64,000 nt of DNA from an uncultured Actinomycetes bacterium (GTDB taxonomy: Bacteria; Actinomycetota; Thermoleophilia; RBG-16-64-13): positions 198,520 to 262,519 of the forward strand of contig CAWDXC010000009.1 of assembly GCA_963806155.1 (NCBI GenBank), given 5' to 3'. The stretch's first letter is position 1; the number at the start of each line of letters is the position of its first letter. A program made the translations under genes and the position numbers. Below the pieces are notes generated by a model, which was not told the origin of the DNA, did not search any database, and worked only from the letters and a program-made list of their open reading frames with translations. This document shows positions 27,599 to 46,594 of the stretch, one piece after another.

Positions 27599-27615
27599 AT
27601 GTATATTAACTTTAA

Positions 27616-27838: not shown

Positions 27839-30541
27839 TTGATGCCGGCGGAAAACGATCGTCGCGCAGAATTGCGCATCAAAGACAAGACGGTACTCAA
27901 GACCCTCGCCCAGTGCTCCTATGCGCAGGGGGGCGAACTGGCGTCAGTGGACGTGAAGGACGGCAAGATCGTCCGCATCCGCCCCCACCACCACACCGAA
28001 AGATACACCGAAGAAGAGCTGGGGCAGTACGAGCTCGAGAAGGACGGCGTGAAGTACAAGACGCCACCCAAAGGTCTCCTCGCCCCCTATCAGATCGCCT
28101 ACAAGAAACGGGTCTACTCTCCCAACCGCATCCTCTACCCGCTCAAGCGAGTCGACTGGGATCCCGATGGGGAGAGGAACACCCAGAACCGGGGCAAAAG
28201 CAAGTACGTCCGCATCTCCTGGGACGAGGCGACCACCACCATCGCCGACGAGATCAAGCGCATCCACAAGGAGTACGGGCCCTATGGGGTGCTCGCCCAC
28301 GGTGACGGCCACGGCGAGACGAAGACCGTGCACGGAGCCCACGCCGTGATGATGGACCTCCTCGAGCTCACCGGCGGCTTCACCCAGGCCATCCGCAACG
28401 CGGACAGCTGGGAGGGTTGGTTCTGGGGCACCAAGCACGTCTGGGGCAACGGGGAGAACGGCCTCGTCCTCCCCGCCGACAACATGATGAACGACGTCAC
28501 CCAGAACACCGACATGATCGTCCACATCGGGGCCGATCTGGAGACCACCCCCTGGGGATTCGCGGGCCAGTTCCCCTCGAACGTCCTTTACTTCTGGCAG
28601 AAGCTAGGTAAGAAGCAAGTCTTTGTCTCCCCCGATCTCAACTACTCGGGCGCCATCCATGCGAGCAAGTGGATCCCCATCCTTCCTAACACCGATGCTG
28701 CCCTGCATCTGGCCATAGCCCATACCTGGATGACCGAGGGCACCTATGACAAGGACTACGTCGCCACCCATGTGGTGGGGTTCGACAAGTTCGAGGACTA
28801 CGTGCTCGGCCGCGAAGACGGGATCCCCAAGACTCCCGAGTGGGCCTCGGCCAAGACCGATGTGCCCGAATGGACCATCAAGGCTCTTGCCCGGGAATGG
28901 GCGGCGCAACCGACCACGGTCATGCACTTCTACGGTGGCTCCTACATCCGTGGCCCCTACTCCCACGAACCGGCCCGGCTGGAAGCCTGCCTCCTCGGCA
29001 TGCAGGGGTTGGGCAAACCGGGCTGCCACCAGTACTACAAGATGGGCGGCGACGACCACTGGATGAACGACACGCCCCGCCCCCTGAAGACCATCCCCGA
29101 CATGCGCATGAGATTCGACCCCACCATCGCCAAGGGCAGCGCGGATGGGCAACAGGGGCCACCTAGCTGGAACATCTTCCCCGGCCAGAAACAGCTGGCG
29201 GTCTCCTCCAAGCAGATCATCCCCAAGACGCAACTGGCTCAGGCCATCCTCGAGGGAACCTGCTGGAGCTCCGGGAGCACCCAGCAGTTCATGCACCTGG
29301 AAGACCAGTTCAAGAGGTACGAGTATCCCATCCCGGCGGAAGAGGGCGGCACCGAGATCCACATGATCTGGATGGACAACCCCTGCCGCACCACCTGCTG
29401 GAACGACGGCTTCATGACGGTGGAGGCCTTCCGCAGCCCCAAGATCGAGACCATCGTGGTGCAGCACCTGTGGCTGGAGAACGACACCATCCTGGCCGAC
29501 CTCATCCTGCCCGTCAACACCAAGCTGGAGGAGGAAGACATCGGCCGTATGTCCGCCGGCGGACGCTCCGTGCACGGCATCCTGCTCGAGAACCAGGCCA
29601 TCGAACCCTTGGGCGAATCGCTCTCCGACTACCAAGCCGTGGGTGAGGTGGCCAAGAAGCTGGGCCTCTACGAGGAGTTCAGCGCGGGGATGACCATAAA
29701 GGAGAAGATCAAGGCGGGCTTCGACAACATGGACATCCACGATTTCGTCACCTGGGAAGATTTCCAGGACAAGCAGTACTTCATCATGCCCACCGATCCC
29801 GAGTGGGATAAGGTCCCGGCCGGTCTGCGCCAGTTCTACGAAGATCCCGAGAAGCATCCGCTGGAGACCCCCAGCGGCAAGCTCGAGTTCTACTCCCAGC
29901 GTCTGGCCGATCACTACCCCGACGACAAAGTGAGAGGCCCTCTGCCCAAGTGGATCGAGAAGGACGAGTTCCACGACGAGCGGGTCTCCAGCCCGCGGGC
30001 GCAGGAGTACCCGCTGCTGCTCGTGACCAACCACGGCCGCTGGCGGACCCATGCTCAGAACGACGACATCCCCTGGCAGCGGGAGATCATGACCTGCAAG
30101 GTCAGAGGTTGGGACGGTTATCTGTACGAGCCCATCTGGATCCATCCCACGGATGCCGAAGCGAGGGGCATCAAGGACGGCGACATCCTCAAGATGTTCA
30201 ACGAGAGAGGTACCGTCCTCGGCGGAGCCCTCGTCTGGGAGCGCATCATGCCTGGAGCCGTGTCCATGGACCACGGCTCCCGCGTCGACCTCATCAACGT
30301 CGGTCCGGACGGTTTCCTCGATCGCGGGGGGGCGAACAACCTCATCTCTCCCATCAACGGCATCTCCCCCAACTGCTGGGGTATGGCCACGAGCAGCTTC
30401 CTGGTGGAGGTGCAGAAGGTGAGCATGGCCGAGATGGAGGAATGGCGGGAGAAGTACCCCGAGGCCTTTGCGAGGAAATACGACCCGGCCTCGGGTCTGC
30501 GCTTCGAGGCCTGGGTGTTAGAGGAAGGAGAGGCCCTATGA
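27839..30541 (+). CDS. molybdopterin (bis-MGD) oxidoreductase large subunit, pyrogallol transhydroxylase / resorcinol hydroxylase-like, cytoplasmic (alpha1)
   Basis: 900 aa; no Tat motif and no N-terminal Cys cluster; conserved YERISWDEA-like, NADSWEGWFWG, LEDxxKH.., FxDP, MopB C-terminal domain; stop overlaps beta start (ATGA). Confidence 0.8.
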   Translation: MMPAENDRRAELRIKDKTVLKTLAQCSYAQGGELASVDVKDGKIVRIRPHHHTERYTEEELGQYELEKDGVKYKTPPKGLLAPYQIAYKKRVYSPNRILYPLKRVDWDPDGERNTQNRGKSKYVRISWDEATTTIADEIKRIHKEYGPYGVLAHGDGHGETKTVHGAHAVMMDLLELTGGFTQAIRNADSWEGWFWGTKHVWGNGENGLVLPADNMMNDVTQNTDMIVHIGADLETTPWGFAGQFPSNVLYFWQKLGKKQVFVSPDLNYSGAIHASKWIPILPNTDAALHLAIAHTWMTEGTYDKDYVATHVVGFDKFEDYVLGREDGIPKTPEWASAKTDVPEWTIKALAREWAAQPTTVMHFYGGSYIRGPYSHEPARLEACLLGMQGLGKPGCHQYYKMGGDDHWMNDTPRPLKTIPDMRMRFDPTIAKGSADGQQGPPSWNIFPGQKQLAVSSKQIIPKTQLAQAILEGTCWSSGSTQQFMHLEDQFKRYEYPIPAEEGGTEIHMIWMDNPCRTTCWNDGFMTVEAFRSPKIETIVVQHLWLENDTILADLILPVNTKLEEEDIGRMSAGGRSVHGILLENQAIEPLGESLSDYQAVGEVAKKLGLYEEFSAGMTIKEKIKAGFDNMDIHDFVTWEDFQDKQYFIMPTDPEWDKVPAGLRQFYEDPEKHPLETPSGKLEFYSQRLADHYPDDKVRGPLPKWIEKDEFHDERVSSPRAQEYPLLLVTNHGRWRTHAQNDDIPWQREIMTCKVRGWDGYLYEPIWIHPTDAEARGIKDGDILKMFNERGTVLGGALVWERIMPGAVSMDHGSRVDLINVGPDGFLDRGGANNLISPINGISPNCWGMATSSFLVEVQKVSMAEMEEWREKYPEAFARKYDPASGLRFEAWVLEEGEAL

Positions 30542-31344
30542 GCAAGGTTTTCGTGTTTGATACCGCCATCTGCAACGGCTGCTACTGCTGCCAGATCGCC
30601 TGCAAAGACGAGCACTGCGGCAACGACTGGACTCCCTACGCCAAGCCGCAGCCCGATACGGGCCAGTTCTGGCTCAAGCTCTCCGAGCATGTGCGCGGGA
30701 CCGTGCCCAAGGTGAAGATGCACTACCTGGCCTCGCTCTGCGCCCACTGCGACGAGGCCCCGTGCATGGCCGCCTGCTCGGTGGAAGGAGCCATCTACAA
30801 GCGCGCGGACGGGTTGGTCATCATCGATCCAGAGAGGTGCACAGGCTGCATGAGCTGCCTGGACGCGTGCCCCAGCGATTCCATCTACTTCAACGAAAAC
30901 CTCACCATCGCTCAGAAGTGCACGGGCTGCGCCCATCTGCTCGACGCCGGCTGGACCGAGCCCCGCTGCGTGGACGCCTGCCCGACTCTGGCCCTGAAGT
31001 ACATGGACGAGGATGAGGCAAAGGAACTGATCGCCGGGGCCGAGACCAGGAATCCGGCCCGAGACGAGCCTCGCCTCTACTACCTGAACATCCCCAAGAA
31101 GTTCGTCGGCGGAACGGTCTACGATCCCGTCGCGAAAGAGGTCGTGAAAGGAGCGACCTGTACCCTTACTGGTAACGGCAGCACCTGGACTGAGGCCACC
31201 GACGGCTTCGGGGACTTCTGGTTCGAGGGCCTCGTGGCGGGCGCATACTCTCTGGAGATAGCGGCCGCGGGCTTCCCGACCAAGCGATTCCCGGAGATAG
31301 CCGTCGAGAATGACGTCAACCTGGGAGACATCCCTTTGGCTTGA
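30538..31344 (+). CDS. 4Fe-4S ferredoxin-type beta subunit with C-terminal carboxypeptidase-regulatory/TTR-like beta-sandwich domain (beta1)
   Basis: CNGCYCCQIACKDEHCG, CxxCxxxPC, CTGCMSCLDACP, CTGCAHLLD...RCVDACP cluster motifs; C-term GTVYDP...GDFWFEGL...Y.LE; translationally coupled to alpha1. Confidence 0.8.
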   Translation: MSKVFVFDTAICNGCYCCQIACKDEHCGNDWTPYAKPQPDTGQFWLKLSEHVRGTVPKVKMHYLASLCAHCDEAPCMAACSVEGAIYKRADGLVIIDPERCTGCMSCLDACPSDSIYFNENLTIAQKCTGCAHLLDAGWTEPRCVDACPTLALKYMDEDEAKELIAGAETRNPARDEPRLYYLNIPKKFVGGTVYDPVAKEVVKGATCTLTGNGSTWTEATDGFGDFWFEGLVAGAYSLEIAAAGFPTKRFPEIAVENDVNLGDIPLA

Positions 31345-31407
31345 CGCGTGCTTAGGATTAAGCTTGATAGGTCGGCTGGCGGCCCCAGCGAGATAGAAGG
31401 AGCGAGA

Positions 31408-32439
31408 TTGATCCCGGTACTCACTATCCGAGATCTCGAGGAATCGAGCGGGGTTCCGCGGACCACGATCCACTACTATCTGAGCATAGGCCTGCTCCCC
31501 CGCCCCCAGAAGACCGCCCGTAGCCGGTCTCTCTACACCAGGGACCACCTCGACATACTGCGAGAGATCGTGGAGCTCAAGCAGGCCGGGCTCGCTCTGG
31601 AGGAGATCCAAGCACAGCTGCAGCATACGGTCGACCGGGCCAACAACGGCGAGGTTGATCTTGCCGCTCAAGAGCATCGGCGCGTGCACGATAGGATCCT
31701 GGCTCTGGCTGCCCAGGAACTGGTCGCAAAGGGTTATAGGAAGACGCATGTCACGACTATTGTGCGCAAGCTCGGCATCACCACAGCCGTCTTCTACAGC
31801 CATTTTCCGAGCAAGCGCGCGCTCCTCTCGGAATGCGTCAGCGCGCTTCTGGGCTGGGGCCTCGAGTTTGTAGATGCCAAAGAGGCCTCGACGGACGACC
31901 CGGCCGAGCGCTTGCTCTGGCTTGTCTTTGGGCATTCGCACGTGTTTCAACTCGGCTCGACCGCCATGGCCCTGACCCGCGTCGACGGCGTCCAGGACGA
32001 GAGCGACCCACAAAGGCCTATGGAGGCGCTCTTCAAAAACATCGTGGAGCACATCAAGGGGGACCTGGCATACGTGCCCAGCGAAGGCTCGAAGCCACCC
32101 GCGGTGCCGGACGAACTCGTGGCCCACAGCCTGTTCGGTGCATATGAGCAGACTGTATTCAGGTCATTCTCGGACAAGATGTACACCCGTGAGGATCTGC
32201 TATTGACTCACCTATGGCTGTTCTTGGCCGTGCAGGCTGCGCGAAGCGGCGAGATCGACGTCGATTCAAGACTGGATAGATACAGGGAACTGGTGTCACA
32301 GCTCGCCACCCAGATGCCGCCTCTTCCCCCGCTCTTGCAGAATGAGAGCACCCATGACCGAGGCGGGGGGACGACGGCCGATCGGATGACTGCTGATGGT
32401 TTATCCCCGATCACTACGCAAGCTGACTCAATGACTTGA
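31408..32439 (+). CDS. MerR-HTH / TetR-like fusion transcriptional regulator, paralog 2
   Basis: TTG start with AAGGAG SD 6 nt upstream; LTIRDLEESSGVPRTTIHYYLSIGLLP MerR HTH plus TetR-like domain; ~55% identical to paralog 1. Confidence 0.7.
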   Translation: MIPVLTIRDLEESSGVPRTTIHYYLSIGLLPRPQKTARSRSLYTRDHLDILREIVELKQAGLALEEIQAQLQHTVDRANNGEVDLAAQEHRRVHDRILALAAQELVAKGYRKTHVTTIVRKLGITTAVFYSHFPSKRALLSECVSALLGWGLEFVDAKEASTDDPAERLLWLVFGHSHVFQLGSTAMALTRVDGVQDESDPQRPMEALFKNIVEHIKGDLAYVPSEGSKPPAVPDELVAHSLFGAYEQTVFRSFSDKMYTREDLLLTHLWLFLAVQAARSGEIDVDSRLDRYRELVSQLATQMPPLPPLLQNESTHDRGGGTTADRMTADGLSPITTQADSMT

Positions 32440-32624
32440 GACCGCTTTCTAAACATGTTAGCGTATGGTCTGGTCTTCTAAGGGCGGGACGGGAAGTACC
32501 GTTCGAAGGTCGTGAAGGGGGGTAGTCGACAAGAGAAGTGATCCTCGATCAGGCGTGTTCTTAGGCTCTTCAACCAAAGGATGCTTCAGCAACTGCATGT
32601 GCGACCTGTGAAACGGAGGGGGAC

Positions 32625-34121
32625 ATGAGCGAGGCGAACGAAACTCACGAAGACCGCAGCCGGGAAGAACAAGAGGAGAAGAGGCCGGCGAGACCGGTCA
32701 GCCGGCGTGATTTCCTGAAGATCGCCGGAATCGCCGGAGCGGCTGTGGGGGCCGGCGCCGGCCTGGGCGGCCTACTCGCCGCCTGCGGCGAAGAAGAAAC
32801 GACCACGACGACCGCGGGCGAGACGACCACCACCACGACCGCCGCCACCACAACGACCGCCGCCGCCGCGACGACCACCGTCAGCACTGCGGCAGAGACC
32901 GGCCGCGAGCTCAAGCTCGGTTTTGTTACGCCGACAACCGGGGCCCTGGCCTCCTTCGGCGTGCCCGACGGATACTGCGTCGAACGGGCGAAAGAGGTGA
33001 TCGCGGACGGGATCGTATGCGGTGACGGACTGAAGCACCCTGTCACAATCAAGGTCGTTGACAGCCAGTCAGACCCCAACCGGGCGGCACAGGTAGCAGG
33101 CGACCTCATCCTAAACGACAAGGTGGATATTATCCTCGTAGCCTCCGCACCCGACAACGTCGTGCCGGTGTCCGGTCAGGCTGAAGCGCTCGGGACACCG
33201 TGCCTCTCCTGCGACGCCCCCTGGCAGAGCTATATGGAGCCTCGGACCGGAGGCGACCTGACGGCGGTGTTCAAGTGGACCTATCACGTCTTCTTTGGTG
33301 GGGAGGACAGCTTCGACATCATGGCCGACGTGTTTCACCGGTTGCCGACCAACAACGTCCTGGCTTTGCTGTATTCCAACAGCTCCGACGGCAACGCCGT
33401 ACATGATCTCGAACTGCCGGTGCTCGAGGAGATGGGCTTCACCGTTGTCGATGGTAGTGGTTTTTCGGAAGGCACCGAAGACTTCACCTCGATAATCAGC
33501 ATGTTCAAGAAGGCGGGGGCCGAGCTGGGGCACGGTCTGCTTTCTCCCCCGGACTTCATCAACTTCTGGAAGCAATCGATCCAGCAGTCCTGGCTGCCAA
33601 AAACGTCCATATGGGGCAAAGCCCTACTTTTCCCCCAGTCCATGGAAGCGATCGGCCCCATCGGCTACGGTCTCTGTGCGGACCAGTGGTGGGGAGCGGA
33701 CTGGCCCTACAAGTCGGCTCTACTTGGAGAGACCTGCCGGCAGTTCGCAGATGACTATGAGGCCCGGACCGATTCGCAGTGGACACAGCCCGTGGCTCAC
33801 TTCATGCTCTTCGAGTGGGCCTATGACGTACTCAGTCGAACGGCCAGCGTGGATGACAAGGACGCGATCATGACGGCGGTCAAGAGCACCAAGCTTGAGA
33901 CCATTCTCGGCACCGTCGATTTTTCAGCGCCGGTGGAGCCGGTCGGACCGCCCTGGGCCGCGGGTCCACGGCACGTCGTGGAGAACGTCTACAAGATCAA
34001 CCATCCTGCCGGCCAGTGGATCAAGGGCACGAAGTGGCCCTTCGATTTGGTTACCGTCAGCAATGCCGGGTGTCCCGCCATTCCCGTGGCAGCCGAGCTA
34101 CAGCCCTATACCGTGAGCTGA
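32625..34121 (+). CDS. ABC transporter substrate-binding lipoprotein, PBP1 family, paralog 3
   Basis: GGAGGGGGAC SD; RRDFLKIAGIAGAAVGAGAGLGGLLAACG lipobox; Thr-rich linker. Confidence 0.85.
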   Translation: MSEANETHEDRSREEQEEKRPARPVSRRDFLKIAGIAGAAVGAGAGLGGLLAACGEEETTTTTAGETTTTTTAATTTTAAAATTTVSTAAETGRELKLGFVTPTTGALASFGVPDGYCVERAKEVIADGIVCGDGLKHPVTIKVVDSQSDPNRAAQVAGDLILNDKVDIILVASAPDNVVPVSGQAEALGTPCLSCDAPWQSYMEPRTGGDLTAVFKWTYHVFFGGEDSFDIMADVFHRLPTNNVLALLYSNSSDGNAVHDLELPVLEEMGFTVVDGSGFSEGTEDFTSIISMFKKAGAELGHGLLSPPDFINFWKQSIQQSWLPKTSIWGKALLFPQSMEAIGPIGYGLCADQWWGADWPYKSALLGETCRQFADDYEARTDSQWTQPVAHFMLFEWAYDVLSRTASVDDKDAIMTAVKSTKLETILGTVDFSAPVEPVGPPWAAGPRHVVENVYKINHPAGQWIKGTKWPFDLVTVSNAGCPAIPVAAELQPYTVS

Positions 34122-34135
34122 GCCGCAGACGACCT

Positions 34136-34174
34136 GGGCGGCGGTGCGCCTCGCGCCGCCGCCCAGTGTGTTTG
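34136..34174 (+). terminator. putative intrinsic terminator (GGGCGGCGG stem / CCGCCGCCC, then GTGTGTTTG)
   Basis: GC-rich hairpin 15 bp after the SBP stop, weak U-tract. Confidence 0.35.
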
Positions 34175-34216: not shown

Positions 34217-35689
34217 CTACTGGAAGCAGAGCTTCCCAGGGTTCATCACGTTGTTCGGGTCGAAGATCCCCTTCACCTTTCGGAGCGCCATCGTGGTACC
34301 AGCGTCTCTCCTATAGGCCATGTCCGCCCAGGGGCCGTAAGGCCGGGAGAAGAAGGCCCCCCTATTCGCCAGAGCGCCGGCGGCGGCGTCCACCAAAGTC
34401 TTCACGGTCTCCTTCTCGGCGAGGTTGTCCTTGTCGAAGAAAAGATTGAACTCGCAGTGGTAATTGACTCCCTGGACCGCCGGCTGGAGATAGATGCCCA
34501 TGTCTGCGACGTCGTACTCAGACTCCATCGCGACGGTCTTCATGGTGTCTATGAGTTCTGGGAGCTTCTCGTGGACCGTTATGAAGAAGATGTCCGCGCA
34601 GCCACTCTTCGCATCGGCTTTCCAATACCCATCCGCAGAGGGCTCGTGCAGCAGGCTCATCAGCTCGAACGCGGAGATCGTGCCCACAGACCTGAGCGGC
34701 TCCACTCTGATGGACTGCGCGATGGTGGAGATGTCCTTCTGGACGTAGCTTATGCGGTCCTCTGGGAAATAGCGGATGCCGGAGATCGTGTAGAACAGTA
34801 TCCAGTTGGGAAGCCCGAATCTCAGCTTCTCGTAGTCGCCAGACCCATCCCGAGTCATCATCCGAGCCAGGTTGGAATCGTTCAGCAGCAGACAGTCGTC
34901 AGCCAAGCGATTGCGGATGAGCCAGTACGCGAACTCCAACAGACTGCCCAGCTTGTCCGAGCCGACCAGATAAGGTTCCTCGATACTGGGCAGATGCTCG
35001 CATCTGACCGTGGCCCAGGTCACGATGCCCATCGTGCCTTGACCGCCCTGGATGAGCCTCAAGAAACCAGCCTGCATAGGGCCTGCAGCCTCGTTTTGGG
35101 CAGCCCCGGCCGCCCACTGCTCCTCCAGAGTGCCGGGGCCGGCGGCCGACCCAGTCCTAAAGACCTCCCCCGAGCCATAGATCACTTCTGTGCAGGCCAT
35201 CGGGTCGGAGGTGTCCCAGTGGTATTTGGGCATGATCACCGGCTCCCGCTCCAGGAGGCTTCCGACTACCGATTTTGTGGCGCGCGGCAGAAGGGGCAGG
35301 TTCAGGCGAAGTCCGGCTTCACGCGCAGCAGGGATCAAGTCGCGGAAGGTGACTCCCGGCTCGACCATAGCGATGCGGTGCTCGAGGTCGAGCCTCACGA
35401 TCCTGTTCATCCCGCTCAAGTCGACGATGACCGCTCCCCCGACACTGGGGACGGTGTCGCCCCGGAAGTGGGGCCCCCCAGAGCTGACGGGGATCAGCGG
35501 AGTGGCCGAAGTATTGGCCCATTGGACTATCTTCTGTATCTCCCCCGCATCTTTGGGTCTCACCACACAGCGAGGCGTGATGGGATGGACGAAACTCTCG
35601 TCCGACGCGTATCCACTGAGGACCGCCGGTGCGTCGGTCACGTTGTCCGCACCGACTATGTTGGCTAATTCTGTCTTCTCTGACATCAC
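34217..35689 (-). CDS. FAD-binding oxidoreductase, GlcD-like (type B paralog)
   Basis: ~60% identical to 24606..26072 product. Confidence 0.8.
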   Translation of the reverse strand: MMSEKTELANIVGADNVTDAPAVLSGYASDESFVHPITPRCVVRPKDAGEIQKIVQWANTSATPLIPVSSGGPHFRGDTVPSVGGAVIVDLSGMNRIVRLDLEHRIAMVEPGVTFRDLIPAAREAGLRLNLPLLPRATKSVVGSLLEREPVIMPKYHWDTSDPMACTEVIYGSGEVFRTGSAAGPGTLEEQWAAGAAQNEAAGPMQAGFLRLIQGGQGTMGIVTWATVRCEHLPSIEEPYLVGSDKLGSLLEFAYWLIRNRLADDCLLLNDSNLARMMTRDGSGDYEKLRFGLPNWILFYTISGIRYFPEDRISYVQKDISTIAQSIRVEPLRSVGTISAFELMSLLHEPSADGYWKADAKSGCADIFFITVHEKLPELIDTMKTVAMESEYDVADMGIYLQPAVQGVNYHCEFNLFFDKDNLAEKETVKTLVDAAAGALANRGAFFSRPYGPWADMAYRRDAGTTMALRKVKGIFDPNNVMNPGKLCFQ

Positions 35690-35732
35690 ACACCCCGTTC
35701 AGTATGGTTCGCCCTGGCTTTCATCGAGCGGT

Positions 35733-37298: not shown

Positions 37299-37311
37299 CG
37301 GGCGTATCCCC

Positions 37312-40171: not shown

Positions 40172-40235
40172 CTTCCTTCTCCCTGATCTTTCATTAGCCT
40201 TTCAACTCAGCTGCGTTCCTATCTGTCTGCCCCGG

Positions 40236-41195
40236 TCACCCCCAGCTTAGGCTTGCCAGGTCCCGCATGGCGATGCGGACGGTGCCCAGAGAGGCATCGC
40301 CTGAGATGACGGTGGAACCATCGATGCGCAGGCGGACCTCCGTCCCATCGGCGGCGACCAGATCGACCAGACACTCCTCGCCGGGCTCGCTGACGCTAAG
40401 GCGGGAGACGCGGGTCAACTCGACGTCGATCTGAGCCGGGCCGAGGGCTCCGGTGAGTTGGGTCTTGCCATTGCAGCGGACTACGCCGAGGTCGAACGGC
40501 GTGCCGTCGCGGCTGACCACCCGGGCTGGAGCATCCGGACCCGGCGAAGTGCCCTGCTCTGAAGAAGCCGCCGAAGCAAGCCAGCGCGTGACGGCATCGA
40601 CCATGAAGTTGACCACTTGCTCCGGTGGATAGCGGTCGTCGAGGCGGGAACGGAACCAGAGGTTCTCGGCGAGGCCGATGAAGCCATAGGCGGCAAGTTC
40701 GGCATCGACGTCACGAGCCCGCCCCGCCTGTATCGCAGCCTCCAGATCCCTCCGGAGAGGCTCGGTGAGGATCTCGTACGCTTCGCGGGCCTTGGTCTTG
40801 ACCTCCACGTCCGGGGACAGTTCGGCCGCGCGCAGCAGGTTGATGATCCCCGGCCACCAGTCGTAGAGGTGGACGGCCTCCACCCGCGGACCGACTCTCG
40901 TGAAGAAATCGCCTTCTCGTATCTTGGGAAGTGATTCGAATTCCCTGATCCGCTCGGTAACGTGGTCGAAACAGGTGAGCAGGAGCTCCTTCTTGTTGCG
41001 GAAGTAGAGATAGAAGGTGCCCTTCCCCATGTTCAGCGAATCAGTGATGTCGCCGACCCGCACGCGATCGTAGCCGACCTCGTTGAACATGATGACCGCC
41101 CGCTCGATGATGCGGTCTCGCTTGTCCTTGAGCTCGTCTCCCGCAGGGGCCGCGGCGACGGCGGAGAGGGCAGCATGCTTGCCTGAAGCCATCAT
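40236..41195 (-). CDS. TetR family regulator with ~120-aa C-terminal extra domain
   Basis: ORF 40236..41378; start placed at ATG 41195 (MMASGK..) so that the downstream promoter lies in intergenic DNA; HTH RIIERAVIMFNEVGYDRVRVGDITDSLNMGKGTFYLYF. Confidence 0.65.
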   Translation of the reverse strand: MMASGKHAALSAVAAAPAGDELKDKRDRIIERAVIMFNEVGYDRVRVGDITDSLNMGKGTFYLYFRNKKELLLTCFDHVTERIREFESLPKIREGDFFTRVGPRVEAVHLYDWWPGIINLLRAAELSPDVEVKTKAREAYEILTEPLRRDLEAAIQAGRARDVDAELAAYGFIGLAENLWFRSRLDDRYPPEQVVNFMVDAVTRWLASAASSEQGTSPGPDAPARVVSRDGTPFDLGVVRCNGKTQLTGALGPAQIDVELTRVSRLSVSEPGEECLVDLVAADGTEVRLRIDGSTVISGDASLGTVRIAMRDLASLSWG

Positions 41196-41332
41196 AGACT
41201 GGTCTCTTCCTTGTGCCTCGCGTTCGTTCGCCCGCGGATGGGAAGTGACTCCCCAGTCACTGTCTGAGAGCATATCAGAATCGCGTTTTAGAGCCAAGCG
41301 TTCTGTTGGCCCTAACGCCGCGAGGGCAAAGC

Positions 41333-41361
41333 TTGACAGGCTCATAAGAAATCGGTAGTGT
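41333..41361 (+). promoter_or_regulatory. candidate promoter TTGACA, 17-nt spacer, -10 TAGTGT
   Basis: sigma70/sigmaA-like hexamers with ideal spacing, ~170 nt upstream of alpha2 ATG. Confidence 0.5.
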
Positions 41362-41366
41362 GGTTG

Positions 41367-41394
41367 TGACTGACCCACCAGTCATTCTGACTGA
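41367..41394. promoter_or_regulatory. TGACTG-n6-CAGTCA inverted repeat plus extra TGACTGA copy, candidate operator at +1
   Basis: same TGACTGAC core as the etfBA palindrome at 46713..46732. Confidence 0.4.
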
Positions 41395-41530
41395 TGCGAC
41401 GGTCATCCAGCGAATCCCGGGGGGGCTTCACATCTTTGCAGAACTTCTATTCATCACGGGCTTGTCGATCTGACGGGCAAACAAGCCACCCCCTCACGGC
41501 CCAGCGACACGGACAGAGGAGAGGTACGCG

Positions 41531-44179
41531 ATGACAGCGGATGAATCCAAGAGGCAGGTTCGCATCTCCGACAAGACGGTCCTCAAGTGTCTCGCCCAGT
41601 GTTCCTTCGCCCAGCAAGGCGAGTTGGCGTCTGTTGACGTGAAGGACGGGAAGATCGTCCGCATCCGTCCCCATCGCCACACCGAGCGGTACACGGTAGA
41701 AGAGCTGGGGCAGTATGAGCTAAACAAGGACGGCGTGAAGTACAAGACGCCACTCAAGGGTCTTCTGGCTCCCTACCAGATCGCCTACAAGAAGCGGGTC
41801 TACTCCCCCAACCGGATACTCTATCCACTCAAAAGGGTGGACTGGGATCCCAAAGGGGAACGCAACCCGCAGAACCGGGGTAAGAGCAAGTACGTGCGGA
41901 TCAGTTGGGATGAGGCCACGACCATCATCGCCGACGAGATCAAACGCATCCACAAGGAATACGGACCCCTTGGCATTCTTGCCCACGGAGACGGACACGG
42001 GGAGACCAAGACGATCCACGGACCTCACGCTGTCCAGATGGATCTGCTGCGTCTGATGGGTGGCTACACTCAGGCCATCAGAAATGCCGACAGCTGGGAG
42101 GGCTGGTACTGGGGCGCCAAGCATGTCTGGGGCAACGGGGAGAACGGCCTCCTACTACCCGCCGACAACATCATGAACGATGTGACCCAGAACACGGACA
42201 TGATCATCCACATCGGCGCCGATCTCGAAACGACGCCGTGGGGCTTCGCCGGCCAATTCCCCAGCACGGTCATCTACTACTGGCAGAAGTTAGGTAAGAA
42301 GCAGGTGTTCGTCTCTCCCGATCTCAACTATTCCGGAGCCGTGCACGCGAGCAAGTGGATCCCCATCCTGCCCAACACCGATGCCGCGCTGCATCTGGCC
42401 ATCGCCTACGTGTGGATGACCGAAGGCACCTACGACAAGGATTACGTAGCTGACCATGTGGTCGGCTTCGACAAGTTCGAGGACTATGTGCTGGGAAGAG
42501 AAGACGGGGTAGCTAAGACCCCGGAGTGGGCTTCGGCTAAGACAGGCGTGCCCGAGTGGACCATCAAAGCTCTTGCCCGGGAGTGGGCGGCTCAGCCCAC
42601 CACGGTCATGCACTTCTACGGCGGCTCCTACATCCGCGGTCCTTACTCGCACGAGCCCGCCCGCCTGGAAGCGTGCCTGCTCGGCATGCAAGGGTTGGGC
42701 AAACCGGGCTGCCACCAGTACTTCAAGATGGGGGGCGATCACCACTGGATGTGCGATACGCCCCGCCCGGTGAGAACAATCGATGACGTGCGGTTTGGGG
42801 TCGCGGGGAACGTCTGGGCTGGTCAGGGGCAGGTCTATATTTCATCGAAGCAGATCATTCCCAAGACGCAGGTCAGCCAGGCCATCCTCAATCCACCCAC
42901 CAGCACGATGGGGAGCACCATCCTTATGGGGCCGCTTGAAGACCAGTTCAAACGCTACGACTACCCCATCCCCGCGGAAGAGGGCGGCACCGAGATCCAC
43001 ATGATCTGGATGGACAACCCCTGCCGCACCACCTGCTGGAACGACGGCTTCCTGACTGTGGAAGCCTTCCGGAGCCCCAAGATCGAGACTCTGGTTGTGC
43101 AACACCCCTGGCTGGAAAACGACACCATCCTGGCCGACATCATCCTGCCTATCAACACCAAGCTGGAAGAAGAAGACATCGCTCGGTTCGCTCAAAACGT
43201 GGCGGTTCACGGGTGCGCTATTGAAGACCAAGCCATAGAGCCTGTCGGGGAGTCTTTGAGCGATTATGAAGCTGTGGGTGAGGTGGCTAAGAAACTGGGT
43301 CTCTATGAGGAGTTCACCCGCGGGAAGACCGTCCGGGAAAAGATCAGACTGGGCTTCCAGGACATGGCCATCGACGATCTGATCAGCTGGGAGGAGTTCT
43401 CCGACAAGAGGTACTACATCGTCCCCACCGACCCCGAATGGGAGAAGGTTCCCGCTGGTCTGAGAGAGTTCTACGAGGATCCGGAAGCGCATCCCTTGGA
43501 GACCCCCAGCGGCAAGCTCGAGTTCTACTCACAGCGGCTGGCGGACAACTTCCCCGACGACACCGAAAGAGGGCCCCTTCCGAAGTGGGTCGAAAGCAGC
43601 GTCACCCACGATGAGAGGGTCTCCAGCCCCCGGGCGAAGAAGTATCCGCTCCTTCTCATGAGCAACCACGGAAGATGGAGGACCCACGCCCAGAACGACG
43701 ACATCACCTGGCAACGGGAGATCATGACCTGCAAGGTCAGGGGCTGGGACGGCTACATGTACGAACCCATCTGGATCAATCCCAAAGACGCCGAAGCCCG
43801 AGGTATCAAGGACGGGGACATCGTCAAGCTCTTCAACGAACGAGGCACGGTGCTCTGCGGGGCTCTGGTGTGGGAACGGATCATGCCGGGAGCGGTCTCG
43901 AGCGACCACGGCTCCCGGGCGGACCTGATCTGCACCGACGGCCCCGAGGGCTACCTCGATAGAGGCGGGGCCAACAACCTGATCTCGCCAATAAACGGAA
44001 CGTCCCAGAACTGCTGGGGCATGGCCACCAGCGGCTATCTGGTGGACGTACAGAAGGTGAGCATGGCCGAAATGGAGGAGTGGAAGAAGAAATATCCGGC
44101 GGCCTTTGCGAGGAAGTACGACCCGGCTTCCGGTCTCAGGTTCGAGGCGTGGGTGCTGGAGGAAGGAGAGGCCCGATGA
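41531..44179 (+). CDS. molybdopterin oxidoreductase large subunit, transhydroxylase-like (alpha2; ~85% identical to alpha1)
   Basis: 882 aa; GAGGAGAGG SD; same motifs as alpha1. Confidence 0.8.
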   Translation: MTADESKRQVRISDKTVLKCLAQCSFAQQGELASVDVKDGKIVRIRPHRHTERYTVEELGQYELNKDGVKYKTPLKGLLAPYQIAYKKRVYSPNRILYPLKRVDWDPKGERNPQNRGKSKYVRISWDEATTIIADEIKRIHKEYGPLGILAHGDGHGETKTIHGPHAVQMDLLRLMGGYTQAIRNADSWEGWYWGAKHVWGNGENGLLLPADNIMNDVTQNTDMIIHIGADLETTPWGFAGQFPSTVIYYWQKLGKKQVFVSPDLNYSGAVHASKWIPILPNTDAALHLAIAYVWMTEGTYDKDYVADHVVGFDKFEDYVLGREDGVAKTPEWASAKTGVPEWTIKALAREWAAQPTTVMHFYGGSYIRGPYSHEPARLEACLLGMQGLGKPGCHQYFKMGGDHHWMCDTPRPVRTIDDVRFGVAGNVWAGQGQVYISSKQIIPKTQVSQAILNPPTSTMGSTILMGPLEDQFKRYDYPIPAEEGGTEIHMIWMDNPCRTTCWNDGFLTVEAFRSPKIETLVVQHPWLENDTILADIILPINTKLEEEDIARFAQNVAVHGCAIEDQAIEPVGESLSDYEAVGEVAKKLGLYEEFTRGKTVREKIRLGFQDMAIDDLISWEEFSDKRYYIVPTDPEWEKVPAGLREFYEDPEAHPLETPSGKLEFYSQRLADNFPDDTERGPLPKWVESSVTHDERVSSPRAKKYPLLLMSNHGRWRTHAQNDDITWQREIMTCKVRGWDGYMYEPIWINPKDAEARGIKDGDIVKLFNERGTVLCGALVWERIMPGAVSSDHGSRADLICTDGPEGYLDRGGANNLISPINGTSQNCWGMATSGYLVDVQKVSMAEMEEWKKKYPAAFARKYDPASGLRFEAWVLEEGEAR

Positions 44180-45018
44180 GCAAGGTCTTCATCTTTGACA
44201 CATCCATCTGTAATGGGTGCTACTGCTGCCAGCTCGCCTGCAAGGACGAGCACTGCGGGAACGACTGGACTCCCTACGCCAAACCGCAGCCCGACACCGG
44301 TCAGTTCTGGCTCAAGCTTTCCGAGCATGTGCGGGGTACGGTCCCCAAGGTGAAGGTGCACTACCTGGCGGCTCTGTGTAACCACTGTGACCAGGCCGCC
44401 TGCCTGGCCGCCTGCCAGGTAGAAGGGACCCTCTACAAGAGGGACGACGGTCTGGTCATCATCGACCCCGAGAAATGCACGGGCTGCACCAATTGCGTGA
44501 GCGCCTGCCCCTACCACGTCATCTATATGAACGAGAACCTGAACATCGCCCAGAAGTGCACCGGATGTGCTCATCTCTTGGACAACGGCTGGACGGAGCC
44601 CCGGTGTGTAGACGCGTGCCCCACCGGAGCGCTACAGTTCATGGAGGAAGCGGAGGCTCAGGGGCCAGTCCAGAGCTCGGAGGTGCTCCACCCGGAATAC
44701 GAGCAGAAGCCCCGGGTCTACTACCTGAACATCCCCAAGAAGTTCATCGCGGGTACCGTCTACGATCCTGTGAAGAAAGAGGTGGTGATCGGAGCTAGTT
44801 GCACCCTCACGAGCAACGGCAGCACCTGGACCACCACCACCGACGGCTTCGGGGACTTCTGGTTCGAGGGGCTCGAGATTGGCAGCTATTCCCTGGAGAT
44901 CGCGGCCCTGGGATTCCCCGCCAAGACCTTCGAGGACATTAGTACTGCGATGGACGTGAACCTGGGAGACATAGCCGTGGCCAAAGACAGCAGCAGCCAA
45001 GCCGGAGGTCGCCAATGA
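44176..45018 (+). CDS. 4Fe-4S ferredoxin beta subunit with C-terminal beta-sandwich domain (beta2)
   Basis: ATGA overlap with alpha2; same Cys clusters as beta1. Confidence 0.8.
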   Translation: MSKVFIFDTSICNGCYCCQLACKDEHCGNDWTPYAKPQPDTGQFWLKLSEHVRGTVPKVKVHYLAALCNHCDQAACLAACQVEGTLYKRDDGLVIIDPEKCTGCTNCVSACPYHVIYMNENLNIAQKCTGCAHLLDNGWTEPRCVDACPTGALQFMEEAEAQGPVQSSEVLHPEYEQKPRVYYLNIPKKFIAGTVYDPVKKEVVIGASCTLTSNGSTWTTTTDGFGDFWFEGLEIGSYSLEIAALGFPAKTFEDISTAMDVNLGDIAVAKDSSSQAGGRQ

Positions 45019-45115
45019 GGTGAGTGCCAGAAGACGTGCGCCGGGATGGACCTGATCTAGAAGCAGGCGCTCGAACCAAGGTGTCCGCGGGACGAAAGGA
45101 AGGCAGGGGGGATAG

Positions 45116-46594
45116 ATGTCGACCGACTTGGAAGACAACAATGCAGGCATCAGTAGGAAGGCCGGCGTCAGCCGGCGCGAATTCTTGAAGATTGCCGGCG
45201 CCGCCGGCGCAACAGTAGGCTTGGGCGCAGGATTGGGCGGGCTGGTGGCCGCCTGTGGAGAGGAAGCCGAGACGACCACTACGGCCGGTGTTACCACCAC
45301 GGCCGGTGTAACCACCACAGCCGGTGTCACCACCACAGCCGCCCCTACCACAGTCAGTAGCGCCGCCGAAGTCGGGCGTGAGGTCAAACTCGGTTTCATC
45401 ACCCCGATTACCGGCGGCCTGGCTCCTTTCGGAGCGACCGACCAGTACTGCGTCAAGCGGGCGCAGGCGGTGATCGGTGACGGGCTGGTAAGTGGCGACG
45501 GTCTGAAACACCCCGTCACCATCAAGCTCCAGGATAGTCAGTCGGACCCGAACCGGGCGGCCCAGGTCGCAGGCGACCTCATCATGAACGACAAGATAGA
45601 CCTTATGCTCGTGGCCTCGACGCCCGATAACGTTGTCCCGGTGGCCGGGACGTGTGAGGCCATGGGGATGCCGTGCATCTCCTTCGACTGCCCCTGGCAG
45701 GGCTTCTTCGCCCCCCGGACCAACGGCGACTATTCAATTGTGTTCAACTGGACCTATCACGTCTTCTTCGGGGCGGAAGAGGGGACCGCCATCATGCTGG
45801 ACCTTCTGAGCCAGTTGCCGACCAACAAGATCGTGGCCATGATGTATCCCAACGACGCCGACGGCAACTCCCTTCACCCTATCCATGCTGCGGCGTTCGA
45901 GGCGGCGGGCTTTACCCTCGTTGATGCCAGCGGTTTCCCGGTCGGCCTGGAGGATTTCACGGAGCAGATCAGCATGTTCAAGAAGGCGGGCGCCGAACAA
46001 GGGCACGGCGTGATGCCTCCGGCGGACTTCACCAACTTCTGGAAACAGTCGATCCAGCAGGGCTGGACGCCGAAGATGTCCATGTGGGCCAAGTCGCTGC
46101 TCTTCCCGGAGTCCCTCGAAGCTCTGGGGCCCATCGGCAACAATCTCTGCTGCGACCAGTGGTGGGGACCGGACTGGCCCTTCACGTCTACCGTCCTTGG
46201 ACAGACTTGCCGACAATTCACAGACGACTTCGAGGCCGAAGCGAAGCGGCAGTGGACCCAGCCCTTGGCCCACATGATGCTCTTCGAGTGGGCCATCGAC
46301 TTGCTCCAGCGGACGGTCAACGTGGACGACACGAACGCTATCATGGCGGCGATCAAGACCACGAAGCTGGACACTATCGCCGGCCCGGTCGATTTCTCGG
46401 CTCCGGTCGAACCGGTCGGCCCACCGTGGGCCGTTGGTCCGAGGCACATCGTGGAGAACGTCTACAAGGTGGGCCTCTGCGCCGGCCAGTGGCGCATGGG
46501 CGGCAAGTACATGTTCGACCTGATCAGCGTCAGCAATGGCGGGCACCCCCTGATCCCGGTGCAGGACAAGGCGCTGCCGTATACCGAGGCCTGA
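45116..46594 (+). CDS. ABC transporter substrate-binding lipoprotein, PBP1 family, paralog 4
   Basis: lipobox LVAACG; 15-bp tandem repeats encode (TTTAGV)x3 linker; ~65% identical to paralog 3. Confidence 0.85.
   Translation: MSTDLEDNNAGISRKAGVSRREFLKIAGAAGATVGLGAGLGGLVAACGEEAETTTTAGVTTTAGVTTTAGVTTTAAPTTVSSAAEVGREVKLGFITPITGGLAPFGATDQYCVKRAQAVIGDGLVSGDGLKHPVTIKLQDSQSDPNRAAQVAGDLIMNDKIDLMLVASTPDNVVPVAGTCEAMGMPCISFDCPWQGFFAPRTNGDYSIVFNWTYHVFFGAEEGTAIMLDLLSQLPTNKIVAMMYPNDADGNSLHPIHAAAFEAAGFTLVDASGFPVGLEDFTEQISMFKKAGAEQGHGVMPPADFTNFWKQSIQQGWTPKMSMWAKSLLFPESLEALGPIGNNLCCDQWWGPDWPFTSTVLGQTCRQFTDDFEAEAKRQWTQPLAHMMLFEWAIDLLQRTVNVDDTNAIMAAIKTTKLDTIAGPVDFSAPVEPVGPPWAVGPRHIVENVYKVGLCAGQWRMGGKYMFDLISVSNGGHPLIPVQDKALPYTEA

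Follow-up and report, generated by a model that had tools for sequence, protein, structure and literature searches.

Gene content of the locus

The 64-kb stretch of DNA analysed here (the window) contains two copies of an alpha-beta-SBP block (27839-34121 and 41531-46594), which encode, in the same order and orientation, a molybdenum enzyme catalytic subunit (alpha), its iron-sulfur subunit (beta) and a substrate-binding protein (SBP). The features of the locus are listed in Table 1. This arrangement had been reported in a preliminary description of the sequence, and it was confirmed by Pfam assignments, protein identities and collinear self-comparison. In both copies the start of beta overlaps the stop of the preceding alpha gene (ATGA). 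The true start of alpha1 is probably the ATG at 27842, with an AAGGAG ribosome-binding site ahead of it. An identical protein to RegB has 343 aa in a public gene call, implying a start near 31408, and the real start of TetR2 probably lies further into the ORF.

Table 1. Coordinates of genes and other features of the two cassettes and their surroundings
Feature	Position	Strand	Description or evidence
Flavoprotein/FeS set 1	21768-26105	-	E1 21768-23396; F1 23332-24615; D1 24606-26105; Pfam
regA	26324-27259	-	MerR-TetR fusion, divergent from alpha1, heads D1-F1-E1 operon; 58% identical to regB
Island 1	27489-27540	+	Conserved promoter/operator island, TTGACA-18-TAGACT containing TCAAGTCTTA
Island 2	27607-27650	+	Conserved promoter/operator island, TAAGACTTGA overlapping TTGAGA-17-TAGTGT
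alpha1	27839-30541	+	Mo-bisPGD catalytic subunit, TH family 'GDGHGE' subtype; Pfam Molybdopterin + Molydop_binding
beta1	30538-31344	+	Iron-sulfur subunit, four Cys groups, C-terminal Ig-like domain; Pfam Fer4_11 + CarboxypepD_reg
regB	31348-32439	+	MerR-HTH/TetR fusion regulator; Pfam MerR_1 + TetR_N
SBP3	32625-34121	+	Tat-exported lipoprotein, LivJ-type substrate-binding protein; Peripla_BP_6, Tat signal
Hairpin	34134-34166	+	Strong, closes cassette 1; 15-bp stem, 13 G-C pairs
Flavoprotein/FeS set 2	34217-40171	-	D2 34217-35689; E2 35733-37298; E2' 37312-38901; F2 38894-40171; Pfam
TetR2	40236-41378	-	Plain TetR, divergent from alpha2; TetR_N
alpha2	41531-44179	+	alpha1 paralogue, 82-83% aa identity; Pfam Molybdopterin + Molydop_binding
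beta2	44176-45018	+	beta1 paralogue, four-cluster type, 75% identity; Fer4_11 + CarboxypepD_reg
SBP4	45116-46594	+	SBP3 paralogue, 65-66% identity; Peripla_BP_6, Tat signal
ETF beta, ETF alpha, CCG/FeS protein	46763-50717	+	Immediately 3' of SBP4; Pfam

The FAD/FeS genes that had been described as separating the blocks do so (set 2), but the TetR2 gene, which had gone unmentioned, lies between them as well. E2' carries two frameshifts, and F2 is a CCG/HdrD-like protein. The nearest solved relatives of D and E are VAO/PCMH-type 4-phenol oxidoreductases. A hydrophobic N-terminal stretch of the CCG/FeS protein encoded after the ETF genes may possibly be a membrane anchor. The paired cassettes are one layer of a larger paralogue array, which in the window comprises at least five alpha-beta pairs, five Tat-lipoprotein SBPs, three MerR-TetR fusions, two flavoprotein/FeS sets, ETF and AOR. 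At two loci of other genomes (such loci are given as L numbers), L004 and L086, alpha-beta genes are combined with D/F/E, ETF, SBP and AOR in single operons. The gene island around the cassettes probably serves the anaerobic breakdown of plant phenolics.

Similarity between the two copies

Alpha1 and alpha2 were identical in 734 of 899 positions (82%; 83.3% in global alignment), beta1 and beta2 in 75.4% of 268 residues (a lower figure, 73%, takes in an out-of-frame upstream stretch), and SBP3 and SBP4 in 66% (65.4% in global alignment). The values given before for alpha and SBP, approximately 85% and 65%, were thus close. Nucleotide self-comparison yielded three collinear matches: 27875-29106 with 41561-42792 (82.9%), 29204-31331 with 42842-44972 (78%), which spans the alpha/beta junction, and 32697-34070 with 45167-46543 (73%). 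All three had E = 0, which excludes chance. The similarity ended with the genes, and the alpha upstream regions and beta-to-SBP spacers had only 7-9-nt chance words in common, although this comparison has little power, as at a dS of about 0.9 such a signal is expected to be eroded.

The dS values between the copies (alpha 0.94, beta 0.99 and SBP 0.88) are nearly equal, which fits a single co-duplication of the cassette, and synonymous divergence was even along the genes in sliding windows. Other paralogue pairs of the window had saturated dS values of 1.1-1.9, and the difference at four-fold sites was 0.47-0.57 for the cassette pairs versus 0.58-0.65 for the older pairs. With dN/dS ratios of 0.12 (alpha), 0.17 (beta) and 0.28 (SBP), all three pairs are under purifying selection. 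The largest differences between the copies are in an alpha loop, which replaces the Tyr404 loop of the related enzyme TH (see below), and in the central part of the SBP.

Regulators and promoters

Copy 1 is under the control of the MerR-TetR fusions RegA and RegB, and copy 2 under that of TetR2, which is unrelated to them. The architecture of the fusion family is always the same, and TetR2 is just 22% identical to RegA and RegB. The preliminary description held that the first copy had gained a regulator. A fusion gene does follow beta1, and by parsimony a gain in the alpha1 lineage (two steps) is weakly favoured over a loss in copy 2 (three steps). However, RegB clusters with the regulators encoded behind beta in L002 and L004, which indicates that the alpha-beta-regB order is ancestral to the alpha1 lineage, so that the gene was inherited rather than recently inserted; regulators orthologous to RegB come after beta in three other genomes. 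Nor is copy 2 devoid of a regulator, since it has its own divergently oriented TetR gene, of which a 93% identical orthologue adjoins the alpha2 orthologue in L085. Upstream of alpha1, island 1 is kept in L003 save for one position, while its flanks drift. Taken together, the differing alpha loop, the differing SBP centre and the unrelated regulators make two related but distinct substrates under separate induction the most likely reading.

Origin of the cassette pair

Trees were constructed by neighbour-joining on corrected p-distances, not by maximum likelihood. Alpha1 and alpha2 fell within one clade (100% support), inside which alpha1 grouped with the alphas of L002, L004 and L086 to the exclusion of alpha2 (96% bootstrap). 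SBP3 and SBP4 were sisters (99% bootstrap) and mutually the closest paralogues of the window, and the beta tree had no resolved grouping. As alpha2 and SBP4 each adjoin, but stand outside, the radiating alpha1 or SBP3 clade, the trees agree. The comparison with related genomes showed that both copies are conserved, with orthologues of copy 1 in L003 and of copy 2 in L085 (96% identity for alpha2). The two copies differ in their regulators, and each has orthologues of its own among the other metagenome-assembled genomes.

The duplication is old, as shown by the nucleotide identity of about 80%, the lack of intergenic similarity, the separate regulators and orthologues of the copies and the position of alpha1, closer to alphas from elsewhere than to alpha2. 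We consider it reasonably probable that the two blocks are old paralogous three-gene catabolic cassettes, which were duplicated as a unit, diverged under purifying selection and serve two related substrates. The modular duplication proposed earlier is borne out to the extent that equal dS, gene order and the trees speak for one cassette, but an in-situ duplication is indistinguishable from the acquisition of a paralogous cassette. It is rather unlikely, but conceivable, that there was no duplication of the cassettes in this genome lineage and that horizontal transfer or recombination brought into the island a second alpha-beta-SBP cassette which had diverged before, or that alpha-beta and SBP were duplicated separately and joined later by selection for co-regulation. 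The grouping of alpha1 with alphas from elsewhere and the unrelated promoters, spacers and regulators of the blocks would fit such a history, as would the reshuffling of components seen in L086, where an SBP1-type SBP and an F-E-D set of type 2 accompany an alpha1-type alpha, and in L088, where an MFS transporter takes the place of the SBP. Against it stand the equal dS of the three genes, the sister relationship of SBP3 and SBP4, the common order and orientation, and a GC content of 0.60-0.62 throughout, with no compositional break between the blocks.

Each cassette lies within a super-module of about 12.4 kb together with a flavoprotein/FeS set and a regulator (21768-34121 and 34217-46594). 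The two super-modules share their content and their divergent layout and are similar in length (12,354 and 12,378 bp), and with L008 as the reference the D/E/F sets of the two types group as sisters. These features could be explained if the whole super-module had been tandem-duplicated long ago and its alpha-beta-SBP part had later been homogenised or replaced, and hence looks younger. We find this improbable: the sets are far more diverged than the cassettes, with D/E/F proteins merely 44-54% identical, in two deep clades and with saturated dS; their gene order differs (D-F-E vs F-E-E'-D), as do the regulator architectures; closer orthologues are found elsewhere (of type 1 in L004 and L009, of type 2 in L086); and alpha1 and alpha2 are not sisters, which argues against recent conversion.

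Substrate-binding proteins

All five SBPs of the window have a Tat motif and a lipobox; in SBP3 these are VSRRDFLK and LLAAC, and a Thr-rich linker is present. The predicted model of SBP4 is confident and has a class-I SBP fold with a mean pLDDT of 82 and, from residue 90, 10-residue block means of mostly 85-98. Structures of LivJ-like and of aromatic-acid SBPs were its fold neighbours (E values of 1e-17 to 1e-18 for 3td9 and 4ey3), in a search unable to separate aromatic-acid binders from amino-acid binders. The LivJ-type aromatic-acid SBPs of Rhodopseudomonas palustris (e.g. 4EVS, 4F8J, 4EY3) share the Peripla_BP_6 class-I fold and are among the neighbours in both sequence and fold, but identity is only 14-17% and the amino-acid-binding LivJ/LivK score equally. 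SBP3 and SBP4 differ from them by the Tat signal, the lipobox, the Thr-rich linker and a longer mature domain.

Within the 64-kb window, neither ABC permease nor LIV-type ATPase genes were found. In L084, a 57% identical SBP homologue adjoins a TH-like alpha-beta pair, and behind it lie genes for two ABC ATPases and two permeases. That the SBPs are not for transport but serve the Mo enzyme as partner subunits or sensors, and were co-duplicated for that reason, is highly improbable: five SBP genes without a LIV-type transporter in the window and SBP genes adjoining alpha-beta in L003, L009, L018 and L086 (and sharing its operon in L004) would suit such a role, but direct adjacency was seen in just 4 of 79 genome loci, the L084 homologue precedes a full LIV-type transporter, and the exported SBPs and the signal-less alpha and beta belong to separate compartments.

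The alpha and beta subunits form a distinct subtype

The best solved relative of both subunits is the pyrogallol-phloroglucinol transhydroxylase (TH) of Pelobacter acidigallici (AthL/BthL, PgtL; PDB 4V4C). Alpha1 matched 4v4c_A with an E value of 1.3e-117 (next, TMAO reductase, 1e-73) and beta1 matched 4v4c_B with 3e-44 (beta matches overall, 1e-44 to 1e-48). As in TH, the alphas have no N-terminal [4Fe-4S] domain (no Molybdop_Fe4S4 match and no Cys motif at the N-termini), and no signal peptide was found in alpha or beta, nor an RR signal at the alpha N-termini. His144 and the D-S-W motif (Asp174, Ser175 and Trp176) are kept in alpha1-4 and in all 30 aligned homologues. In TH, Ser175 is reported to be the Mo ligand, and Tyr404, Arg153, Tyr152 and Tyr560 to form the substrate/cosubstrate pocket (Messerschmidt et al. 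2004). Tyr152, Arg153, Trp354, Tyr404 and Tyr560 are kept in alpha3 and alpha4 but lost in alpha1 and alpha2, which have Gly152 and Ala/Pro153, a deletion at 560, and a replacement of the FPGY404 loop that differs in length between the copies. The Pfam family AhtL-like_1st gave a weak match to alpha1 and strong ones to alpha3 and alpha4.

In beta1 and beta2 all four Cys groups are complete, with 18 Cys in the ferredoxin part, whereas TH beta, which has three [4Fe-4S] clusters, beta3 and beta4 contain 12-13 Cys and lack group III. Sixteen Cys of beta2 align one-for-one with the four-cluster PsrB (2vpw_B). The C-terminal Ig-like (CarboxypepD_reg) domain is shared with TH, the 4v4c_B alignment reaching residue 255-260. 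Among 70 adjacent alpha-beta pairs of other genomes the alpha and beta subtypes co-vary, and no NCBIfam model matched the subtype above a curated cut-off. As judged from these sequences, the alpha1/alpha2 enzymes are members of the TH family and a distinct subtype with a rebuilt pocket and a four-cluster beta, while alpha3-beta3 and alpha4-beta4 of the same window are of the canonical TH-like type. As a duplication the locus is ordinary; the uncharacterised enzyme subtype makes it moderately interesting.

Proposed function and comparison with known systems

The reaction of TH, in which a hydroxyl group is transferred between pyrogallol and tetrahydroxybenzene, is redox-neutral. In the subtype described here, the four clusters of beta would indicate a genuine redox reaction, of which a water-dependent hydroxylation with the electrons leaving via beta is the likeliest form. 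We envisage that the Tat-exported lipoprotein SBP binds a phenolic substrate extracellularly and passes it to a LIV-type ABC transporter whose genes lie elsewhere, and that the cytoplasmic Mo-bisPGD enzyme, as a member of the TH/resorcinol hydroxylase family, modifies the aromatic ring. The neighbouring VAO/PCMH-like flavoproteins, the HdrD-like CCG protein, ETF and AOR, a context conserved across genomes, may carry out side-chain and aldehyde oxidation and provide the electron route, possibly to quinone. The two cassettes would then most likely be two parallel routes, each for the uptake and hydroxylation of one related phenolic substrate.

The water-dependent hydroxylation proposed for the four-cluster subtype is the type of reaction of resorcinol hydroxylase RhLS of Azoarcus anaerobius and 3,5-dihydroxybenzoate hydroxylase DbhLS of Thauera aromatica AR-1, Ser-ligated enzymes of the TH family that hydroxylate phenol rings with water and deliver electrons to an acceptor (PMC10100899). 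Both are betaproteobacterial enzymes, while the relatives closest to the window are Actinomycetota MAGs (labelled Actinomycetes, Gaiellales), and many homologues are from Dehalococcoidia. The coupling of the cassettes to SBPs, MerR-TetR or TetR regulators and flavoprotein/ETF genes distinguishes them from TH. Several paralogous alpha-beta operons per genome are also known from the Chloroflexi genomes RBG-2, RBG-1351 and DEH-C11, whose multi-copy AthLS-like operons were read as polyphenol catabolism; the two subtypes, the SBP/regulator coupling and the flavoprotein/ETF context do not appear in those papers (PMC3971608, PMC4959651). The catechol dehydroxylases of gut Actinobacteria (Dadh, Hcdh, Cldh) are likewise actinobacterial bis-MGD enzymes that modify phenolic rings, but their clade is a separate one, close to acetylene hydratase (PMC7028382), which alpha1 matched with an E value of only 5e-16, compared with 1e-117 for TH.

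Gene organization of the two cassettes

The genes were mapped by ORF listing, codon-position GC and Pfam scans of the window (GC content approximately 62%). Cassette 1 consists of alpha1, beta1, regB and SBP3, and cassette 2 of alpha2, beta2 and SBP4, where alpha is a Mo-bisPGD large subunit, beta an iron-sulfur subunit, SBP an exported LivJ-type substrate-binding protein and regB a regulator. The map agreed with the gene positions and gene types of the preliminary description. Each cassette lies inside a super-module of approximately 12.4 kb, and the two super-modules share their layout.

Positions of the features in the window
Feature	Position	Strand	Remarks
ABC ATPase gene	1101-2070		appears frameshift-split
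Two 251-255-aa paralogues	4179-4946, 62444-63199	-	46% identical
URO-D-family gene	5117-6300		appears frameshift-split; possibly methyltransferase component
Two S15/CocE-type hydrolases	6322-8064, 9682-11457	-	IclR gene between
Other SBPs of the five-member Tat-lipoprotein family	11664-13142, 15355-16842, 57746-59446
Mo oxidoreductase, 757 aa	18386-20659	-	N-terminal Fe4S4 domain
Super-module 1	21768-34121
E1, F1, D1	21768-26105	-	two FAD_binding_4 flavoproteins, CCG/Fer4_8 FeS protein (Pfam)
regA	26324-27259	-	MerR-TetR fusion
Candidate operators	27489-27540, 27607-27650
alpha1	27839-30541	+
beta1	30538-31344	+
regB	31348-32439	+	MerR-TetR fusion (MerR_1 + TetR_N)
SBP3	32625-34121	+
Strong hairpin	34134-34166	+
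Super-module 2	34217-46594
D2, E2, E2', F2	34217-40171	-	E2 35733-37298, E2' 37312-38901
TetR2	40236-41378	-
alpha2	41531-44179	+
beta2	44176-45018	+
SBP4	45116-46594	+
ETF beta, ETF alpha, CCG/FeS protein	46763-50717	+	CCG/FeS protein with hydrophobic N-terminus (possible membrane anchor)
alpha3-beta3, alpha4-beta4	51038-57776	+	tandem operons
regC	about 59553-60500	-	MerR-TetR fusion
Fifth beta	63461-63856	-	C-terminal Ig-like domain; at window edge

Extent and age of the duplication

The two alpha proteins are 82% identical by BLASTP (734/899) and 83.3% by global alignment, the beta proteins 75.4% and SBP3 and SBP4 65-66%. Nucleotide self-comparison of the window yielded three collinear matches between the blocks: 27875-29106 with 41561-42792 (82.9% identity), 29204-31331 with 42842-44972 (78%), which spans the 4-nt overlap between alpha and beta, and 32697-34070 with 45167-46543 (73%). 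Non-coding similarity, in the 579-nt and 152-nt regions upstream of the alpha genes and in the beta-to-SBP spacers, was limited to chance words of 7-9 nt. The earlier claim that one block is present twice was therefore confirmed, with collinearity of the gene order and of the contiguous alpha-beta pair but not of the DNA as an uninterrupted stretch.

dN/dS was determined by the NG86 and LWL85 methods; the dS values given here are those of NG86. Between the copies dS was 0.94 (alpha), 0.99 (beta) and 0.88 (SBP), and four-fold sites differed at 0.47-0.57, less than the saturation level represented by the older paralogue pairs of the window (D1/D2, E1/E2, F1/F2, regA/regB and alpha3/alpha4; dS 1.1-1.9, four-fold difference 0.58-0.65). 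Third-position divergence was approximately even over the full length of the three genes. All three are under purifying selection, as indicated by dN/dS values of 0.12 (alpha), 0.17 (beta) and 0.28 (SBP).

In neighbour-joining trees (200 bootstraps) alpha1 and its orthologue in L003, a 645-kb contig of an uncultured Actinomycetes metagenome-assembled genome (MAG), joined the alphas of the MAG loci L002, L004 and L086 at 96%, and alpha2 with its orthologue in locus L085 (100%) fell outside this group. The SBP3 clade (L003, L004 and the homologous proteins P0121-P0129) had 100% support, with SBP4 as its sister at 99%. Equal dS, identical gene order and agreeing trees point to alpha, beta and SBP having been copied together in one co-duplication. 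The topology of the alpha and SBP trees places the split before the radiation of the alpha1/SBP3 lineage over several MAGs; the duplication is old.

The closest relatives of the window are MAGs labelled Actinomycetes and Gaiellales; exact matching of alpha2 against public assemblies gave no record. L003 is syntenic with it from the gene of the 757-aa Mo oxidoreductase through F2 (83-97% amino acid identity), and L085 contains TetR2 (93%), alpha2 (96%) and beta2 (91%) in the same layout; both copies are thus kept in relatives. The alpha1 and alpha2 groups formed a single clade with 100% support. Acquisition of a second cassette that had already diverged, instead of duplication in place, seems rather unlikely. 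A recent duplication or an assembly artefact is ruled out by the nucleotide identity of approximately 80% and by the conservation of both copies in other MAGs. The duplication is an ordinary paralogue expansion, the routine growth of a gene family within a catabolic island.

Regulators and candidate operators

The window contains three paralogous MerR-TetR fusions, in which a MerR-type HTH is combined with a TetR HTH and ligand domain. The regB family has approximately 160 detectable homologues, mostly metagenome proteins with a few named ones from Actinobacteria MAGs, and no characterised fusion was found among them; both MerR_1 and TetR_N were present in all but one among the 120 matches listed. 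A protein identical to regB (P0241) is encoded on a public contig of 698 kb. In the regulator tree regB joined the regulators following beta in L002 and L004 (71%; these two group at 100%), and regA and regC were placed elsewhere. The alpha-beta-regB order was therefore inherited within the alpha1 lineage, and the regulator is not a recent insertion into the first copy. L086, which has an alpha1-type alpha, is without a post-beta MerR-TetR gene, and so are the alpha2, L001, L009 and L088 lineages. On the alpha tree, two steps are needed if the gene was gained where the alpha1 clade begins, and three if it was present ancestrally. Between the insertion and the loss that the preliminary description had offered, parsimony thus gives only a weak preference to gain. 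No remnant of a regulator gene was found in the 97-nt beta2-SBP4 spacer. Cassette 2 has its own regulator, TetR2, a plain TetR protein with 22% identity to regA and regB, divergently oriented from alpha2.

Two islands between regA and alpha1 are conserved with L003 but for a few positions, while their flanks drift. The islands are candidate operators; in each, an arm of TCAAGTCTTA/TAAGACTTGA overlaps promoter-like hexamers. TCAAGTCTTA occurs only at these two places and is absent from the rest of the window, block 2 included; its raw count is not above chance, and its credibility as an operator derives from its conservation in L003.

Subtype of the alpha and beta subunits

Pyrogallol-phloroglucinol transhydroxylase (TH, 4v4c) was the best solved relative of both subunits, with E about 1e-117 for alpha1 and alpha2 (4v4c_A) and 1e-44 to 1e-48 for beta (4v4c_B). 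DMSO and TMAO reductases (about 1e-70) and acetylene hydratase (5e-16) were the next relatives of alpha. None of the ten proteins tested reached a curated NCBIfam cut-off.

The window alphas and 30 homologues were aligned to TH numbering for comparison of the active sites. Residue roles in TH, and the three clusters of its beta subunit, were reportedly described by Messerschmidt et al. 2004. His144 and the Asp174-Ser175-Trp176 motif, which includes the Mo ligand Ser175, are present in all aligned alphas. Alpha3 and alpha4 additionally retain Tyr152, Arg/Lys153, the FPGY404 motif and Tyr560 of TH. In contrast, throughout the subfamily of alpha1 and alpha2 position 152 is Gly and position 153 Ala/Pro, both inside a GDGHGE motif, position 354 is Gly, the 404 region is a substituted loop of variable length, and Tyr560 is deleted. 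It is at the 404 loop that alpha1 and alpha2 differ most (16-22-residue indel, 61% identity over codons 403-498).

The beta subunits differ correspondingly. Beta1 and beta2 have four complete Cys groups with 18 Cys in the ferredoxin part, beta2 matching the four-cluster protein PsrB (2vpw_B) Cys for Cys, whereas TH beta, beta3 and beta4 lack three of the group III Cys and the last group II Cys, and have 12-13 left. In 70 adjacent alpha-beta pairs of other genomes the alpha and beta types co-vary almost perfectly. Alpha1-beta1 and alpha2-beta2 thus belong to the TH family by descent, yet lack two of its defining features, the pocket residues and the three-cluster beta; they represent a subtype of this known family that is uncharacterised. 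Catechol dehydroxylases form a separate clade (PMC7028382), which together with the matches to solved structures rules out that alpha1 is one of them. A Ser-ligated PgtL/RhL clade has been described (PMC10100899).

These differences provide a sequence rule that divides 'pyrogallol hydroxytransferase' annotations into a canonical TH-like type (FPGY404 motif, Tyr560, three-cluster beta) and a type with rebuilt pocket and four-cluster beta, the latter common in MAGs of Dehalococcoidia, Actinomycetota and Desulfobacterales. Such genes are routinely taken as a sign of pyrogallol fermentation, which for the rebuilt-pocket type is possibly wrong.

The alpha3-beta3 and alpha4-beta4 pairs, tandem operons 57-60% identical in amino acid sequence, keep FPGY404, Tyr560 and a three-cluster beta, and are thus of the canonical subtype. 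The two subtypes are also found side by side in the loci L009, L088, L001 and L028, and may act in sequence.

Binding proteins

In all five SBPs a VSRR[ED]FL[KR] twin-arginine motif is accompanied by a lipobox (L-[VL]-A-[AS]-C) and by a linker rich in Thr and Ala. The linker contains three TTTAGV repeats in SBP4 and three TTTTAPAS repeats in SBP5; alpha and beta are without signal peptide. The SBP4 model, a class-I binding protein, is confident, with a mean pLDDT of 82 and, beginning at residue 90, averages of mostly 85-98 in blocks of 10 residues. Its fold neighbours included LivJ/LivK and aromatic-acid binders of Rhodopseudomonas palustris; amino-acid and aromatic-acid binders scored alike, so the fold search did not separate the ligand classes. 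No LIV-type ABC permease or ATPase gene was found in the 64-kb window. In locus L084 two genes each for ABC ATPases and permeases come after a 57% SBP homologue that adjoins TH-like genes, which supports a transport role of the SBPs via a translocator encoded elsewhere.

The surrounding gene array

The cassette pair is one layer of a large gene array. Four alpha-beta pairs are complete in the window, a fifth beta is represented by its end, and a further pair probably continues past the window edge. In addition to the five SBPs and three MerR-TetR fusions there are two D/E/F sets, two S15/CocE-type hydrolases, two 251-255-aa paralogues, ETF, an aldehyde:ferredoxin oxidoreductase (AOR), two IclR regulators and one more TetR. 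Among solved structures the flavoproteins D and E came closest to 4-phenol oxidoreductases in the VAO/PCMH group (E 1e-20 to 1e-14), and glycolate oxidase and D-lactate dehydrogenase scored lower. The CCG protein F is of the HdrD/GlpC-like kind. Sets 1 and 2 are only 44-54% identical, do not share their gene order and form two deep clades in the trees, from which it follows that the flavoprotein/FeS layer predates the alpha-beta-SBP duplication. Closer orthologues are found in L004, L009 and L001 for type 1 and in L086 for type 2. As the gene orders of related loci illustrate, this is a conserved functional gene set shuffled by module among genomes.

Gene orders in related MAG loci
Locus	Order
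L004 (one strand)	alpha, beta, MerR-TetR, D, F, E, ETF beta, ETF alpha, SBP
L086	AOR, alpha, beta, SBP, F, E, D, ETF beta, ETF alpha
L009	MerR-TetR, SBP, D, F, E, unknown-251, S15, alpha, beta, SBP, alpha3-type, beta3-type
L088	MFS, unknown-251, S15, alpha, beta, alpha3-type, beta3-type

Proposed function

Each cassette would capture and take up a phenolic substrate, whose ring would then be modified by the Mo enzyme in the cytoplasm. TH catalyzes a redox-neutral transfer; resorcinol hydroxylase (RhLS) is the comparison for redox-type ring hydroxylation. The complete four-cluster wire of beta1 and beta2 argues that the reaction is net redox, as in resorcinol hydroxylase, and not a transfer like that of TH. 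The ETF and CCG protein encoded downstream of SBP4 suggest an electron route, possibly to quinone. Since the pocket loop and the SBP centre have diverged and the regulators are separate, the two copies probably act on two related substrates. Being diverged and equipped with a binding protein and a regulator apiece, they offer a natural pair for substrate finding. Family membership and the residue and Cys patterns are read directly from the sequences, and the reaction, the substrates and the electron path are inferred from them.

We tentatively consider, with somewhat more doubt than confidence, a wider interpretation: GDGHGE alphas with four-cluster betas would form a large, functionally distinct branch of the TH family, a redox-active anaerobic ring hydroxylase (or dehydroxylase). 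In these Actinomycetota this enzyme would be genetically linked with VAO/PCMH-like flavoproteins, an HdrD-like FeS protein, ETF, AOR, S15 esterases and Tat-lipoprotein SBPs as a new oxygen-independent route for plant phenolics, whose substrate range the duplication would widen. Several AthLS-like operons per genome were found in Chloroflexi and interpreted as polyphenol use (PMC3971608, PMC4959651).

Other observations in the window

The S15/CocE-type paralogues are 77.6% identical in nucleotide sequence with a dS of 0.93, and are therefore about as old as the alpha-beta-SBP duplication; an 80% orthologue lies immediately upstream of alpha-beta in L009 and L088. The 251-255-aa paralogues had no Pfam match. 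In L009, L088 and locus L089 orthologues of 78-81% identity are found ahead of the S15 hydrolase and alpha-beta, and the protein looks like a conserved pathway member. The gene of the 757-aa Mo oxidoreductase, which is not related to the TH type, adjoins flavoprotein set 1. Its conservation in L003 is 92%, and in several loci of Desulfobacterales alpha-beta has a distant homologue of it (23-25%) as a neighbour.

E2 and E2' are a tandem FAD flavoprotein duplicate with 84% nucleotide identity, and the single E gene of L086 matches E2' more closely than E2. Compared with its intact L003 orthologue, E2' carries one extra base at each of two sites, near 38312 (within a GGG run) and near 37657, which reflects either the decay of a pseudogene or an error of assembly. 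Together with the split ABC ATPase and URO-D-family genes, it hints at assembly indel errors or several pseudogenes.
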